Source of the DNA: a phage | DNA length: 64,000 nt | Reading direction: 5' to 3' (one strand) | Sequence record: PZ534511.1 | Shown here: piece by piece, positions 25,852 to 30,642 of the stretch | Layout of the letters: each line of letters begins with the position of its first letter | How positions within the stretch are numbered: position 1 is the stretch's first letter | Made by a program: the position numbers and the translations under genes | Notes under the pieces: generated by a model | Database searches by the model: none | Seen by the model: only the letters and a program-made list of their open reading frames with translations | What the model was told of the DNA's origin: nothing

Positions 25852-26159
25852 GGTGGATTATGTCTACAAAGGCGGCTAAATACTCTTACATGCCATCAAC
25901 CTCTGCAGAGGTAGACTTTAGTTTCGATGTGTTTCCACTGTTTGAGGTGGTTCTGGCATACCCAACAATACTATCTACTCCTGAATCACTTGTGCCTGTT
26001 AAGTTGCAGAACGCTATGCATTCTATGCACTACAACAATAAATGTAGGCACAGATGGTGTCAGGACGAGGAAAAAGATTTGGATAGTTTGAGAGATTTTG
26101 ACAGTCACCTTTTGACACCTTTCAGCTACTCCAACCTTGATAAGCCCTCATGGGTATAG
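25848..26159 (+). CDS. hypothetical protein
   Basis: ORF. Confidence 0.4.
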   Translation: MRWIMSTKAAKYSYMPSTSAEVDFSFDVFPLFEVVLAYPTILSTPESLVPVKLQNAMHSMHYNNKCRHRWCQDEEKDLDSLRDFDSHLLTPFSYSNLDKPSWV

Positions 26160-26183
26160 CAAAATATCAAATTTAAGACACCT

Positions 26184-26210
26184 AGGACGCTCTGTGGCGT
26201 CCTTTTCTTT
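26184..26210 (+). terminator. rho-independent terminator
   Basis: AGGACGC-ucugu-GGCGUCCU hairpin followed by UUUCUUU. Confidence 0.65.
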
Positions 26211-26372
26211 ATCTGGTGCACGATTGCATACCTTGGACAGATAATCTCGTTACAGAGCGTTTAAGAGCTTCCTACAAACAAATCTCTCTTTCGAGCGTAG
26301 CGAGAACGCACGTCCGTTTTGACCCAAATCACCATACGCTCGGATTTTAACCAAACCCTCGCGGCGTTTCTG

Positions 26373-26401
26373 TTGACACATTACCGATCCAGTGATAGTA
26401 T
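26373..26401 (+). promoter_or_regulatory. sigma70-like promoter (TTGACA-17-TAGTAT)
   Basis: -35/-10 hexamers. Confidence 0.5.
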
Positions 26402-26421
26402 CCACACATAGTTTGTAGAAT

Positions 26422-26523
26422 ATGGAGTACACAATGAGAACATTGTCCGAAGTTTTAGTGGTGATCCTGATGATCATTACGTCCATAGCGGCTGTTGCCG
26501 GAATACTCACGGGTGGAACATGA
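26422..26523 (+). CDS. 33-aa hydrophobic micro-protein (below ORF-track cut-off)
   Basis: single TM-like stretch; stop overlaps next ATG. Confidence 0.3.
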   Translation: MEYTMRTLSEVLVVILMIITSIAAVAGILTGGT

Positions 26524-26732
26524 TCAACACACATGCATCTGAAGAGACATCCGAAGGAGTGACCATATGTCCCTTGGATGAGCCAGTTAAAGAGGAAAAC
26601 TTAGATTCTGAGGACTCTTCATCTTCGTCCCAGACAGATCCTGAGGCTGATGACCTGACGTGGGAGGACATCGTAGATATCTGGTTCTCTATTATGCCTG
26701 AGCACGAAGAGTTCAGAGGTGGTAGACTATGA
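26520..26732 (+). CDS. hypothetical acidic protein
   Basis: ORF; Ser/Asp/Glu-rich. Confidence 0.4.
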   Translation: MINTHASEETSEGVTICPLDEPVKEENLDSEDSSSSSQTDPEADDLTWEDIVDIWFSIMPEHEEFRGGRL

Positions 26733-26771
26733 AGCACCGAGCCCACACAGGTTCCTCATGCTAAAGCATGG

Positions 26772-27982
26772 CCTGAAGAGGCAAACGTGTATAATTCTTG
26801 TGCATTGGAACGTATAAAACCCTGTTCACACTCTCATTCCCAGAGGAGATTTTATGAAGATAGAAATATTTGGTGGGGCTGACAACACTCGTGGCCTGAT
26901 TTACCTTGAATTCGATGAATCATACCTGCCAGAGGTGTTAAATATAGACTCTGTTGCTGAGGCTTTGGGAGTAAACCCTAAAGAACTCCACTCTTGTGCT
27001 GAGATCGATGGTTGGGAAGAGACCATGAATATTGATTTCAGTGAAGTAGAGGATGAACCGCTGGACTGACACACAATTAGCTGCCCGGCTAAAGTGCTGG
27101 AAGCACCTATAACACATCTTTCAACTAAATTTCCTACCACCACAATCACTTACCTCCCACACATGACTGTTTGCTTGTTTAGTGAGCAGTCATGCCTTGA
27201 CATTCTTGCCTATCCTGATAAAATTAAGTTCTTCTCTTTTCTTTTACCGAGTAATTCGGGTTTTCTGTTCTCTTCGGTTTGAAGGGGTATGGAGATACAC
27301 CTGAGTGAACAGGGTGAACAACCGAACCATTGGCTATGGCATTAGCATGGCGAAGCGGACGGGTGACGAAAGAGTGGCCGGAGGACACCAGTCACTGCCA
27401 TATGATATATGGGTGATAACCTGAAGAGTCTGAATAAGTGTTTAAGTACCAGTCAGAGGAAAAGGTGAATGGTAGCCGAAGGGGGAGGGGGGTTTCTTGT
27501 ATCTTTAATTTGTATATTATGTATACACTTGTAAACCAATCTCATCTGAATCTGTTTACCACACAAGGCGGATAGAGACAAATATTACCTATTAAACTTG
27601 AATTATTTATAGAAAATACCACAACACCACTTAAGTCTTTGATTTTACACACAAATCTTACAGATATTCAGCCTCCCTATTTAACATACCTGTAACATAT
27701 TCCATACTCTACCTGTCTGATCAATTTACTCCCACCACATCCCCACATTTTCCTTGTCTGTACTACCCCTGCCCCGCCGGGAGTCCCGTCATATCTGGCT
27801 TTCCAGCAAATATCACACCCACAAATATCATTGCCTGAAGAGGGTTTCATCCCATAACACATGCCTTACCTGAAGAGCGCTTCATACACCACGTAAATTT
27901 TTTAATTGACCTCCCCTTCCCCGCCGGAGAGGTTGGCTTTTCCCACACAGACCTGAAGAGTCAGCCAGAAATATCTGAAGAG
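26772..27982. repeat. six dispersed copies of 9-mer CCTGAAGAG (one TCTGAAGAG)
   Basis: copies at 26772, 27420, 27834, 27869, 27952, 27974 on the same strand. Confidence 0.6.
26854..27069 (+). CDS. hypothetical acidic protein
   Basis: ORF with GGAG RBS. Confidence 0.45.
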   Translation: MKIEIFGGADNTRGLIYLEFDESYLPEVLNIDSVAEALGVNPKELHSCAEIDGWEETMNIDFSEVEDEPLD

Positions 27983-28610
27983 GGTCTAGTTCTGCCCTGT
28001 CATGAGCGGTAGCGACTGGAGTGCTGCCAGGCGGACGAAATGGGAATACTTCTCATTCTTATAATAATTCTCAAATATCGAGGCAGTGAGGCAAATTAAT
28101 AGGTGAGGCCGTTCACACAGTGGCACAACATTTGCAACCTATCTTGTGGGGGTGAATGAGAATACCTATCATTGTGAGAATAGTTATCATTACGGGCAAT
28201 TTAACATAATACCCATTATGCGCACCACTGGCGATACATACAGGGATTGATAACATGAGTTACAGTTTACGCATATAACAATCATATTTCTTACTATTTG
28301 TGTGGGATATAGTTAGCAGCCAATAGATTAGATATTGACCTGCAGACTTCCAACCGTCTAGACGTCTAAACGCCCACACAACAAGGATTATACATACATC
28401 GCTGAATGTAAACAGGGCCGCAAAAATGCTACCATACCAGTTTGTAAATTTTTCATGCAGCACTTGACAAAGAGGAGAAAAACTTGTCTGACACACCGGA
28501 CACAATATGGCACAATAACGACTGTTATTATTTCATGTTTCACTGTTCACGTATAGATTGTTCCCGCATAGACTGTTTACACCTTGACAGTTTACACAGA
28601 TATGATAAGC

Positions 28611-28860
28611 CATGACATTCGTTTGCATGAAAACAATTAGCAAGTTAACAATTAACAAGTTAATAATATATGACATAATATAAAAGCAGGGCAACTATTA
28701 GCAGATCTATAGTTGCCTTGCTTGTTATGTCATGATTAACTAAATACAAGGCAACTATGATCTGATTAATAGTTTGCAGACAAACTATCACGGGGGTGAT
28801 GGTTACTGCTTTTATATTATGTCGCGACTCCGTCGCGCCATGCCATTCGTTTGCATAGTT
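28611..28860. repeat. cluster of inverted and direct repeats (candidate origin or regulatory site)
   Basis: 18-mer CATGMCATTCGTTTGCAT x2; 21-bp inverted pair at 28668/28807; AAGGCAACTAT and its complement x4. Confidence 0.55.
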
Positions 28861-29470
28861 GCCTTATTGTTACAGGTAAAACAATTACATTATTAATTAT
28901 TTCTTATCTTTCTGTTAGTCATCTAATGATTCCAGTTAGTATAGTAACGTACAGTAAACATTAGACGACTAAAGATTTCTCTGCTTATGATAACTTGCCG
29001 TGACAATTTCGGACTGTTTACGAAAAATGTTGACACCTGAGCTGATTTATGTTATGCAATTTAAACGAATAATTATTTTATGCAGGTATTGACTATTCCG
29101 TTATTCTATGGTTGGAATAAATACTTAGCAAGCTATAGAATGGTGAGCGTACGTAAATTCTGAAATCTGGCGGCTATAGTTATACTCGATTTTTCGCATA
29201 GGACACGCTTTCGATGTTGTGTAAGTGTATGACTTATAAGAATTTTTATTTGTTGACAAGATATTGAAGATATGCATCAGGTTAAAATTTATGCAATAGC
29301 GGCATTACGTGCAATTTTGGGAGAGAAAACGGGCAAAAATGGCCTTGCTACCACACAATGAAAAATTATGCAATAGTTATTTTCCATGTATATTTGTACA
29401 GTGTGTGGGATTAATAGCTAGTCAATTATTCCACTTGCCAGGTAGGGCCGTTTATGGTAGGAGAAGAGCA

Positions 29471-29498
29471 GACAAAAAGAAAGGGGCCTAAGCCCCTT
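29471..29498 (-). terminator. rho-independent terminator for the minus-strand gene block
   Basis: GGGGC-uuag-GCCCC hairpin followed by U-run on minus strand, just after stop of 29517 gene. Confidence 0.55.
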
Positions 29499-29516
29499 GA
29501 TAATTCAGTTAAAAAA

Positions 29517-29936
29517 TTATAATGATTCGTATATTTCAAAAATCCGATTTGCCAGGTCGTTACGGTAGCGGAATTTTTCCTCACGTTTGATCATAAGATC
29601 TTTATAACCGTACTCTTTAAGCACTTCATTAACTTTATGGCGGCATACTTTCATATTATCCTGCGCGTCACCAATAAATCTGTTGCTATGGTGCATGGCT
29701 TTAATTTCTTCTTCCAGGACCAGGGCAACTATGCGGACCGGATCAAGCTGATAGGCGGTAACATCCATGCGGCATTGTAGACGGCTTTTAACGTCCGCCA
29801 CCGGATATACTGCAACCTCTTCCCCGTCAACATTGACAATAATTAGTTTACCATCGATTTCGAATCCTTTCGCCGCCGGACCGTGACAAAAAGCGTTATC
29901 AAAGCTATATGCCGGATTATCAGATTTAATGTTCAT
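29517..29936 (-). CDS. hypothetical protein
   Basis: ORF with GAGG RBS. Confidence 0.5.
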   Translation of the reverse strand: MNIKSDNPAYSFDNAFCHGPAAKGFEIDGKLIIVNVDGEEVAVYPVADVKSRLQCRMDVTAYQLDPVRIVALVLEEEIKAMHHSNRFIGDAQDNMKVCRHKVNEVLKEYGYKDLMIKREEKFRYRNDLANRIFEIYESL

Positions 29937-30081
29937 GGTGTTTTTTACCTCTCAGTTAATTTTCTTACAACTTCCCTTCAAAAAAGAATATAGCAAAACT
30001 GCCGATCCCTGTCAACCAAGGATAGCATAATTTTTATGTGATCAAGGGGCTTTATTGCCCCTGACCATGTAACTTGTTGTA

Positions 30082-30347
30082 TTATTTGTTGCTCATCCAG
30101 TTTTCCCAAGCTGCCTGATAATCTGCCTCACTACGGCGGATCTCTTCTTGCTCTTCAAGCCGGATCTCTTCTTCCAGGTACCCCAGGATATCGGATTTTT
30201 TGGTCTGGCGTAGCATCCAGTCATCTTTTTTGCGAGTAAAGATCTTATAAGCTTTCTCGCAAACCTCTTTTTTGCTACCTTTTTGGACTTCAAGAATTCT
30301 GTAGGCCATGTACTGAACTAATTTAAGCTGATCCAGACGTTTCATGA
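30082..30347 (-). CDS. hypothetical protein
   Basis: ATG preceded by AAAGAGGAAAACATC cassette. Confidence 0.45.
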
Positions 30348-30423
30348 TGTTTTCCTCTTTATGTGGTTCGTTTTGATTAGTTGATAATACAGCAGTTCGC
30401 AGATCAGTTTTTAGCAATTCATG

Positions 30424-30642
30424 CTATTTACTCACAAGGGTGTCGAAAACAAATTTTTCTTTATTGTCTAAACTCACGTATCCGATTCGACCACGCAAGC
30501 CGCAAGTAGTGCCGTACTCGTAACCATTAAGGCCTTTAACCTTCCAATCCGTACCCATTAAAACCGCATTATATTCCTGACCAACTACAAAAGCGCCCCC
30601 AGTCGATTCAATGCAAACAACTTTAATTTTACGGGTTGTCAT
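30424..30642 (-). CDS. hypothetical protein
   Basis: ORF with GGGAGAAAG RBS and upstream hairpin. Confidence 0.45.
   Translation of the reverse strand: MTTRKIKVVCIESTGGAFVVGQEYNAVLMGTDWKVKGLNGYEYGTTCGLRGRIGYVSLDNKEKFVFDTLVSK

Follow-up and report, generated by a model that had tools for sequence, protein, structure and literature searches.

A conserved, very probably folded element beside the direct terminal repeat of Vequintavirus genomes and its counterparts in sister genera

Introduction

The concatemer junction of phages T7 and T3, which contains a short, exact direct terminal repeat (DTR), is the described system closest in position to the locus considered here, nucleotides 28611-28860 of a 64-kb stretch of phage DNA (record PZ534511.1; "the window" denotes this whole stretch). 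The window belongs to a Vequintavirus, i.e., an rV5-like E. coli myovirus, and approx. 120 phage records match it at 90-96% identity. A cluster of direct and inverted repeats had been noticed at the locus and was taken for an iteron-plus-palindrome replication origin or a partition or packaging site (the original prediction). We find that the repeats are very probably the strands of a conserved folded element at the genome end.

As in T7, an exact short DTR lies within the junction; here it is 459 bp long and non-coding. Variable short-repeat arrays are found directly outside both DTR boundaries, the places in which Dunn and Studier (1983) reportedly located the SRL and SRR arrays of T7. However, the phages considered here are myoviruses of 130-150 kb with no phage RNA polymerase and no sequence similarity to T7, and we know of no covarying multi-helix element beside the T7 repeat. 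Moreover, a role of the element in end formation is only conjectural, and one vequintavirus, FV3, is without it. For DTR ends in general, formation by extension from staggered nicks has been proposed (PMC5557969), and KPP-1, a member of the same subfamily, has been classed as T7-type by PhageTerm (PMC9862379).

A second parallel is the injection-stop-signal region of T5 (Repeat Region 3 of the left terminal repeat), which is large and untranslated and straddles the repeat boundary (bioRxiv 10.1101/866236). Like the present locus, it combines nested direct and inverted repeats with palindromes that are conserved across relatives at a terminal-repeat boundary; unlike it, the T5 region contains an ordered set of eight DnaA boxes (there are none here) and belongs to a repeat of approx. 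10 kb. The evidence from covariation for base pairing is particular to the element described here. We are not aware of two-step injection in rV5-like phages.

The pRNA of phi29 is a structured RNA of 120-174 nt, the gene for which lies within a few hundred bases of the left end of the genome. Its two termini, 5' and 3', form a closing helix around a multi-helix junction, and in relatives its structure, not its sequence, is conserved. The element is comparable to pRNA in size, position and conservation pattern, but it has no Rfam match (pRNA included) and is known from sequence, not as a transcript. Furthermore, Vequintavirinae package DTR genomes with a terminase and are not protein-primed, and the element is dispensable in FV3. 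Folded single-stranded DNA (ssDNA) sites, such as plasmid single-strand origins, integron attC, F-plasmid Frpo and the N4 hairpin promoters, are strand-specific structures of 60-300 nt with covarying stems. They resemble the element in form, as their stems covary while the sequence is otherwise free, but they belong to replicons or recombination systems with a single-stranded stage; we know of no such stage, recombinase or virion RNA polymerase in Vequintavirinae. Repeated short motifs no more than a few hundred bp from the cut are also a feature of the lambda cosB R-sites, the pac hexamers of phage P1, and pacL/pacR of SPP1. The phased units seen in the window lie one helical turn apart, starting 2 bp past the cut and outside 28611-28860. 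The cosB and pac sites, however, are recognised as duplex DNA and are conserved as motifs, without compensatory change, and the structured block described here is non-essential. The element is not a member of the T7, T5, pRNA or folded-ssDNA systems.

A base-paired element common to five genera

Blastn searches with window sequences returned Vequintavirus records only, and neighbouring genes were rejected as cross-genus anchors, the flanking genes not being homologous between Vequintavirus and KPP-1. The link to other genera was made via the published DTR coordinates of KPP-1 (a Klebsiella phage, Mydovirus), in which PhageTerm placed a T7-type DTR of 514 bp at 116,316-116,829 (PMC9862379). The KPP-1 junction has the same layout as the window, and the sequences at its DTR boundaries are similar. 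On the left, GTGCT.. ends at the boundary and G(A/G)CGGAC begins there; on the right, CTTGACAA.GAG.AGA..TTGT runs up to the boundary. Approximately 310 bp inside the DTR, a perfect 21-bp inverted repeat encloses 164 nt of nested hairpins and is followed by TGTCGCTCGCTACGCTCGCGCCA, the equivalent of which in the window is TGTCGCGACTCCGTCGCGCCA. A blastn search with this KPP-1 segment gave 68 records from phages of Klebsiella, Salmonella, Cronobacter, Proteus, Raoultella, Erwinia and E. coli.

A perfect closing inverted repeat (helix P1) of 18-22 bp, with arms 116-226 nt apart, is present in every lineage examined (KPP-1, Mydo, PVP-SE1, GAP31, 4MG, pEp_SNUABM_01, Av-05, KNP2, BIS47, Ro1 and several uncultivated contigs). 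The element occurs in the genera Vequintavirus, Mydovirus, Seunavirus, Henunavirus and Avunavirus. Across these five genera, there are approx. 11 distinct variants of the P1 arms, and the arm pairs are always exactly complementary; in all sampled genera, P1 begins 180-430 bp past the predicted DTR end. The common architecture consists of P1, a hairpin H1 abutting the P1 5' arm, a long-range helix H2 around variable hairpins, and a hairpin H3 that, together with a GAGTTA linker, abuts the P1 3' arm. A conserved tail holds the second copy of a direct repeat (DR2), the first copy of which is the 3' strand of H2; in most genera other than Vequintavirus, DR2 is followed by a U-rich tract. In those genera, a motif of approx. 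13 nt, CSMCACRATWACRC, occurs five times in alternating orientation, by the same logic as the copies of GGCAACTAT in the window. A signature, TGTCGC-N5-14-TCGCGCCA, occurs once per locus in 35 element-bearing loci from four genera, Henunavirus having the variant GGTGGCTCGCTACGCTCGCCACC. In the window, the signature is unique (0 expected by chance), abuts P1, and is followed by a repeat copy.

Base pairing was assessed on an alignment of 12 non-Vequintavirus sequences, in which 49 pairs were counted and from which RNAalifold recovers P1, H1, H2 and H3. The proportion of paired cells is 99.7%, compared with 91.2 +/- 0.7% in shuffles and 24-52% when the partners are slid by 1-3 columns. Changes on both sides of a pair are seen in 18 of the 49 pairs; the shuffles give 7.1 +/- 1.7 (none of 500 reaches 18), and slid partners give 1-4. 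In P1, 12 of 19 pairs show compensatory changes, and no pair is broken except at one terminal position. H3 takes the forms TGATAA/TTATCA, CGATA/TATCG, TGCGA/TCGCA and TCGAAAC/GTTTTGA in otherwise near-identical elements, and extra hairpins are inserted only in loops (H3 of Mydo, H1 of UViG43). Double-sided changes that keep complementarity indicate selection on base pairing and, in turn, an element that acts as a folded single strand; the existence of a conserved folded element at the genome end is, in our judgement, very probable. H2 and the flanking AGCCACGATAACGCGAACGAAA, on the other hand, are sequence-invariant across genera, which indicates that a portion of the element is recognised through its sequence as well.

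This invariance without covariation is among the observations that would fit an array of duplex binding sites for a phage protein (the terminase small subunit, a repressor or an initiator), in which motifs rather than helices matter. The motif families found in both orientations (GGCAACTAT four times in the window, CSMCACRATWACRC five times in other genera) and the phased GACAYAAT-like units at +2 to +42 from the DTR end would fit it as well. However, the sequences of H1, H3 and P1 change freely between close relatives yet stay complementary, so that the protein would have to re-specify its sites each time. Spacers and loops of the block are also invariant within the genus, and no DNA-binding domain was detected in the neighbouring genes (a Pfam search found no domain in the five small flanking proteins). 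A duplex DNA binding site does not account for the covariation pattern, and we regard a binding-site array as quite improbable.

The Vequintavirus element differs from the others in its interior. The H2 helix that is invariant in other genera (GTGTTATCGTGGC/GCCACGATAACGC) is not found in the window, where its analogue is ATAGTTGCCTTG/CAAGGCAACTAT; the interior of Av-05 likewise departs from the invariant H2. The different interior suggests that Vequintavirus carries a divergent subtype of the element family. Scans of metagenomes and IMG/VR with invariant 17-22-mers added few further lineages, and a search of IMG/VR for the exact GGCAACTAT-N10-ATAGTTGCC was uninformative, as it gave two vequintavirus contigs and three unrelated contigs in which the match is an ordinary intergenic hairpin. 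An unrelated viral contig, IMGVR_UViG_3300037721_000035 (L008 4780-5060), picked up solely by its exact copy of the palindrome, has a dense intergenic cluster of GGCAACTAT and GGCAACCAA in both orientations downstream of an open reading frame (ORF). In E. coli chromosomes, no similarity to the element was found, and the only "plasmid" match is a vequintavirus genome: CP057073.1, recorded as a 137.6-kb E. coli plasmid from cattle faeces. Similarly, 18-19 records of the MG0656xx series titled "Campylobacter phage" have the sequences of E. coli vequintavirus genomes.

The element in the window

The features of the locus and its surroundings are collected in Table 1. The 18-bp inverted repeat is the closing helix P1, the palindromes and the GGGG-loop hairpin are the nested H1, H2-like region and H3, and DR2 with the last copy of ATAGTTGCCTT is the conserved 3' tail, which is able to pair with an interior strand.

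Table 1. Coordinates of features at the concatemer junction of the window (strand left empty where none applies; DR, direct repeat)
Feature	Position	Strand	Basis or remarks
Right-end ORF-free DNA	27070-28029		left of DTR in concatemer junction; invariant block 27134-27493; hypervariable 27974-28013
DTR	28030-28488		459 bp, single copy in collapsed/concatemeric sequence; begins GGCGGACG, ends ...AAAAACTTGTC
GACAYAAT-like unit array	28489-28530	+	approx. 10-11 bp spacing; first unit 2 bp past DTR end; 2-5 copies in relatives
15-bp tandem repeats (TGTTCACGTATAGAT and variants)	28542-28600	+	copy number varies between phages
DR1 (18-mer copy 1)	28611-28628	+	left recombination partner in the FV3 deletion; absent in V18
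15-bp tandem repeat AACAATTAACAAGTT, 2.4 copies	28632-28667	+	variable in relatives, or replaced by a terminator-like hairpin (GGTCACCCCTTCGGGTGTTTCT)
Near-invariant block (folded element plus 3' tail)	28669-28875	+	alignment of relatives
P1 5' arm GACATAATATAAAAGCAG	28672-28689	+	homologous arms covary in other genera
H1 palindrome (AAGCAG)GGCAACTAT-N10-ATAGTTGCC(TTGCTT)	28684-28723	+	G.U wobble on + strand
H2-like region	28709-28777	+	ATAGTTGCCTTG (28709-20) pairs perfectly with CAAGGCAACTAT (28747-58); minimum-free-energy folds
H3 hairpin AACTATCAC-GGGG-GTGATGGTT	28783-28804	+	abuts P1 3' arm; homologous H3 covaries in other genera
P1 3' arm CTGCTTTTATATTATGTC	28806-28823	+	inverted-repeat search
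Family signature TGTCGC-N7-TCGCGCCA	28820-28840	+	includes small hairpin GCGAC-TCC-GTCGC, 28824-36
Tail: DR2 (28839-56) overlapping a copy of ATAGTTGCCTT (28855-65)	28839-28872	+	repeat analysis

All of the repeats first reported at the locus are real, with some corrections. The two 18-mers, CATG(A/C)CATTCGTTTGCAT, have no other match in the 64 kb even with up to three mismatches (0.13 expected), though the second starts at 28839, not 28838. The motif said to follow each of them, AAAACAATTA, lies one base after DR1 but 21 nt after DR2 (28878-87). The inverted pair is a perfect repeat of 18 bp instead of 21 bp, with arms 116 nt apart. The four copies of AAGGCAACTAT or its complement are present within 180 bp, at 28688 (+, one mismatch), 28709 (-), 28748 (+) and 28855 (-). 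Across the window, there are eight at up to one mismatch, compared with 1.5 expected, a number reached in none of 100 shuffles. The palindrome GGCAACTAT-N10-ATAGTTGCC extends to 15-bp arms (28684-98 and 28709-23; 93% complementarity), and AGATCT lies within its N10 but off-centre. The surroundings are A/T-rich, as stated (GC 0.377 versus approx. 0.43 window-wide), and the cluster reaches beyond 28611-28860, with 15-bp tandem repeats already at 28542-28577 in addition to those at 28632-28667 and the hairpin now designated H3.

The reading of these repeats as iterons of an origin, by contrast, is not supported. The repeats are the two strands of helices, and across five genera it is the pairing, not the sequence, that is kept. 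In particular, the four copies of GGCAACTAT make up a chain of alternative pairings, in which copy A (28684-98) can pair with copy B (28709-23), copy B with copy C (28747-58), and copy C with copy D (28854-72); because the copies pair alternately in this way, the supposed iterons are helix strands. A second, degenerate copy of the palindrome occupies 28747-28777, and the tail can pair with the interior strand 28741-59 to give an alternative helix. The fold of the whole domain has a z-score of approx. -8 to -12 on either strand; in the structural comparison, fold z-scores range from -9 to -13.

The P1 5' arm starts 184 bp from 28488. It contains an extended -10-like TGaCATAAT (28671-79), and its core, TGACATAAT, is the core of the GACAYAAT array, the units of which follow the DTR end at +2, +12, +22, +32 and +42, at intervals of one helical turn. 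The possibility of an invertible segment or of a miniature inverted-repeat transposable element was considered and rejected: the interior has the same orientation in all lineages, and the 18-mers lie 43 and 15 nt from the arms rather than abutting them.

Conservation within Vequintavirus and the FV3 deletion

Conservation within the genus was profiled on an alignment of 19 relatives. Identity is 92-98% in the DTR and 97.5-99.8% in 28694-28853, and it falls to 59-70% in two flanks just outside the DTR boundaries (27974-28013 and 28494-28653). These flanks are hypervariable through modular gain and loss of short repeat units; set against the conserved DTR, they suggest that the processing sites are where recombination, or the expansion and contraction of repeats, is concentrated. 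The expectation that the repeats would be conserved in relatives holds for the block 28669-28875, which is near-invariant, but not for the upstream repeats, which vary, DR1 being absent in V18. Within the block, spacers and loops are invariant across the genus as well. The differences that do occur lie mostly in the 10-nt loop of the palindrome and include 1-nt indels, which show that the block is not coding. Small ORFs (one for a 19-25-aa peptide and others of 40-43 aa) were ruled out by these indels and by conservation that is not codon-like. The non-coding, cis-acting nature proposed for the locus is thus well founded, given that most of the approx. 120 relatives have no annotated gene there, that frame-breaking indels occur in an otherwise invariant block, and that selection on sequence or structure is strong. 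Two lineage-specific insertions were seen within or next to the element: a GC-rich terminator-like hairpin (GGTCACCCCTTCGGGTGTTTCT) directly upstream of P1 in seven relatives (including L002, L003, L014 and L022), and, in rV5 (L004), phita32 and LL12 (L013, L020), an insert of 33 bp (TTAACATCCTCGAGACGAAGGCTATGCCTGAGT) that closely follows H1.

The block was found in 118 of approx. 122 Vequintavirus records. The exception is FV3, in which a single hybrid 18-mer (...GCCATGACATTCGTTTGCATAGTTGCC...) remains, 28629-28838 is gone, and the DTR and the GACAYAAT array are retained. This natural, not engineered, deletion is clean and arose by recombination between the two direct 18-mers. FV3 was isolated and propagated without the cluster, which indicates that the whole cluster is dispensable.

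Position beside the direct terminal repeat

The locus lies in a gene-free gap of 2.45 kb (27070-29516) at the convergence of two gene arms. The + strand arm stops at 27069, the last gene of the - strand arm (139 aa) has its stop at 29517, and ORFs under the locus reach 40-43 aa at most. In the rV5 genome paper (Kropinski 2013, PMC3606486), the gap is drawn as a box labelled "non-coding"; a bidirectional terminator was expected between genes 163 and 164 and was not found, and the origin was not located. Several GenBank records begin or end within the gap. The Gotham record has a repeat_region annotated over bases 1-459 and a second one over the final 459 bases; in Gotham and ECP2309, exact 459-bp terminal repeats are present at both record ends and map to 28030-28488 (89-96% identity). 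The records of HdK5, YN3 and ECP2309 terminate at the base equivalent to 28488, and HdK5 was linearised at abrupt read ends, with a terminal redundancy of 458 bp (Korf et al. 2019, PMC6563267). The exact terminal repeats and the record ends at 28488 indicate that the gap is the concatemer junction of a phage with a short, exact DTR. Some other reports class vequintaviruses as circularly permuted or headful from PhageTerm output.

The boundaries of the repeat are defined by sequence and common to relatives. A left motif, G(A/G)CGGAC, and a right motif, TTGACA(A/G)GGAG..TTGT, lie 460-515 bp apart in phages of Vequinta-, Mydo-, Seuna- and Henunavirus; the boundary motifs recur in six genera and coincide with the PhageTerm coordinates of KPP-1. 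The locus is located 120-370 bp inside the right DTR boundary, i.e., at the left end of virion DNA. Of the functions originally proposed for it, a packaging-related one comes closest, as the locus lies beside the DTR in the concatemer junction, whereas an origin does not fit this neighbourhood.

In favour of an origin, it can be said that the locus is A/T-rich non-coding DNA with repeats and palindromes, as are iteron origins (lambda ori, theta plasmids), that the rV5 authors could not locate an origin, and that a structured transcript or ssDNA fold could in principle prime replication. However, cumulative GC skew has its maximum at the locus and both gene arms are transcribed toward it, a terminus-like position that coincides with the physical ends and is the wrong one for an iteron origin. 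DnaA boxes (TTWTNCACA) are absent from 27652-29600 (six window-wide, with 8.6 expected), no initiator-like gene is adjacent, and phased direct iterons are not found across genera, the 18-mers being 228 bp apart and one of them missing in V18. Moreover, the locus is deleted in viable FV3. An origin is therefore very unlikely.

The convergence of the gene arms raises another explanation, in which the structure consists of back-to-back intrinsic terminators that insulate the arms: a + strand hairpin (28779-28810) followed by UUUUAUAUU, and a - strand hairpin (28723-28684) followed by the same U-rich arm. Such a bidirectional terminator is what the rV5 paper (PMC3606486) expected between genes 163 and 164. 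H3 is called as terminator-like, and on each strand one of the 18-bp arms places a U-tract behind a hairpin. The resemblance of H3 and the U-rich P1 arm to an intrinsic terminator is, however, confined to this genus; elsewhere, the arms are not U-rich (e.g., CTCCCGTGTTATTGTGTCGC), yet P1 is conserved and covaries. Each gene arm already has a terminator by its last gene (29498-29481 and 27247-27259), and H2, the tail and the fixed distance to the DTR would be left unexplained. The terminator pair is about as improbable as an origin.

RNA or single-stranded DNA

The pairing evidence calls for a single strand, which could be RNA or DNA. Each of the 14 non-Watson-Crick cells counted in the covariation alignment is a + strand G.U, and A.C does not occur among them; the wobble in H1 of the window is also G.U on the + strand. 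GNRA loops (GAAA, GAUA, GUAA) occur in several lineages, and, taken as a whole, the element looks like a structured RNA. Raw folding energies favour the + strand by 6-13 kcal/mol, but the choice of strand by folding energy was dropped because composition-corrected z-scores do not differ. We therefore do not rely on it, and the proposal rests on the wobble pairs and loops: the + strand would fold, most probably as RNA, either as a structured non-coding RNA (ncRNA) or as part of a rightward transcript from the genome end, with the same strand exposed as ssDNA as the alternative form of the fold. The RNA form is rated slightly below even odds. The complete proposal, an RNA-leaning folded element with an accessory role at the genome end, is given a probability of approx. 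0.5.

Several points weigh against this proposal. The strand asymmetry of G.U pairs reflects only approx. four independent events. P1 has no G.U pair in any lineage (approx. 228 cells) and the composition-corrected z-scores are equal on both strands, two observations that fit DNA as well as RNA. No sigma-70 promoter was found at a conserved offset on either strand, and no transcriptome or expression data for Vequintavirinae were found in the literature searched. A + strand terminator-like hairpin lies directly upstream of P1 in 7 of the 19 vequintaviruses and in PVP-SE1 and would block read-through from the DTR. The core of the P1 arms is repeated directly beside the DTR cut, which suggests that the arms may also be protein-binding sites. 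Furthermore, the DTR coordinates of the window were transferred by homology, not derived from reads of its own phage, and the loss in FV3, a single genome record from 2012, could be that of a laboratory variant.

A fold at the level of DNA, formed in single-stranded or supercoiled DNA and acting in cis in concatemer-junction processing, terminal-repeat regeneration, packaging or priming, would be comparable to the hairpins and palindromes that have been invoked for ends of the T7 type, and likewise to single-strand origins of plasmids and to recombination sites that act in folded form. The strictly Watson-Crick P1, the equal folding of both strands after composition correction and the lack of a conserved promoter all agree with it, as does the position of the element next to the DTR boundary in every genus. 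The interior of Av-05 contains C-GTA-G mini-hairpins, which are typical of stable DNA loops, and extension from staggered nicks at DTR ends (PMC5557969) would imply strand displacement nearby. On the other hand, the simple staggered-nick model keeps the DNA to the right of 28488 double-stranded, arms 116-217 nt apart extrude poorly from duplex DNA, and FV3 propagates without the element; the wobble asymmetry (G.T only, if DNA) and the GNRA loops lean toward RNA. We consider a DNA-level fold possible but rather unlikely.

An RNA of a known family was not found: Rfam gave no match at E <= 1 in 26000-30500 or at the KPP-1, PVP-SE1, pEp_SNUABM_01 and Av-05 loci. A dedicated small RNA gene was also considered, with a promoter TTAACA-16-CATAAT, a start at approx. 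28686 and a terminator at approx. 28815. It was rejected as a general account, as the resulting RNA would lack the P1 5' arm, the -35 box lies in hypervariable DNA, and the other genera have neither feature.

Possible roles

The proposed role of the RNA-leaning element is accessory and non-essential, for instance, an influence on what happens at the DNA that is packaged first or last. Other possible accessory roles are processing of a transcript via the perfect 18-21-bp helix and countering a host factor. If transcribed, P1 (18-22 bp, perfect) would make a good site for double-strand-specific processing, and the alternating repeats would permit a two-state fold.

It is not likely that the element is a replication origin or an indispensable terminase recognition site; FV3 lacks the structured block, which is thus not indispensable in cis for packaging. 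In this genus, the phased GACAYAAT array, which was seen in vequintaviruses and not in other genera, appears from its sequence to be the better candidate for binding of a protein such as the terminase.

A bolder idea is that the element serves at the genome end, as RNA or as folded DNA, as a cofactor with which large myoviruses make or use ends of the T7 type. It might be, e.g., a pRNA-like or terminase-associated structured RNA, or a strand-specific fold that helps to regenerate the terminal repeat or labels the end that enters first. The repeats would then constitute a two-state switch between nested P1/H2 and side-by-side hairpins or tail pairing, and the switch would sense whether the junction is linear, concatemeric or transcribed. 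We hold this idea, with all its parts, to be improbable.

Other features of the gap

A second near-invariant non-coding block (27134-27493; 96-100% identity among relatives) is located in the right-end unique DNA. It contains a near-consensus promoter, TTGACA-16-TAAAAT with TG (27197-27224), and a small terminator-like hairpin (27247-59); its structure is mild (z = -1.85), and it has no Rfam match. This block may correspond to a further non-coding transcript or to a site with a role in packaging. The sequence CCTGAAGAG occurs nine times in the window, with 0.46 expected, and five copies lie in or beside the gap (27420, 27834, 27869, 27952 and 26772). It often forms the loop of small hairpins, e.g., GACCTGAAGAGTC, and units resembling it (GACCTGAAGTGTCAGCC, AATCTGAAGGGACTCC) are found at the corresponding position in KPP-1, left of the DTR.

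The junction gap is poor in GATC, with two sites in 1.87 kb (27720-29588) compared with approx. 10 predicted from the genome density. These two (28704 and 28759) each form the loop of one of the two GGCAACTAT palindromes. H1 of the other genera has CGATCA...TGATCG as its invariant base; in GAP31, the stem has lost GATC, and the loop contains one. Enrichment of Dam sites (GATC) within the element, at 2 in 152 nt, is not significant.

A rightward motif, TTGACA-N12-TATGC(A/T), is found at 29254-29277 and 29031-29060 of the window, at L027 3594-3620, and at the equivalent sites in PVP-SE1, GAP31 and 4MG; outside Vequintavirus, its position is immediately downstream of the element. Since 12 bp is not the sigma-70 spacing, the motif may represent a phage-specific promoter class. 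In addition, TTATGCAAT is repeated at 29050-29380.

Significance

Phages of the rV5-like group and its sister genera (PVP-SE1, GAP31, the KPP-1/KB57 group and others) are among the most often isolated phages of broad host range with uses in therapy and biocontrol, yet their genome ends, packaging signals, origin and non-coding functions were essentially uncharacterised before. The physical ends are now placed in the gap labelled "non-coding" and are sequence-defined across genera. Next to them lies what appears to be a subfamily-wide, covariation-supported folded element that has so far been undescribed. It can serve as an annotation marker for the true genome start, and, as a structured element without an Rfam counterpart, it offers a mutable target for studying how large myoviruses make and use T7-type ends. 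If the element acts as RNA, it would represent a new family of phage ncRNA; if it acts as folded DNA, a strand-specific structure of this kind would be unusual for a lytic phage with a double-stranded DNA genome.

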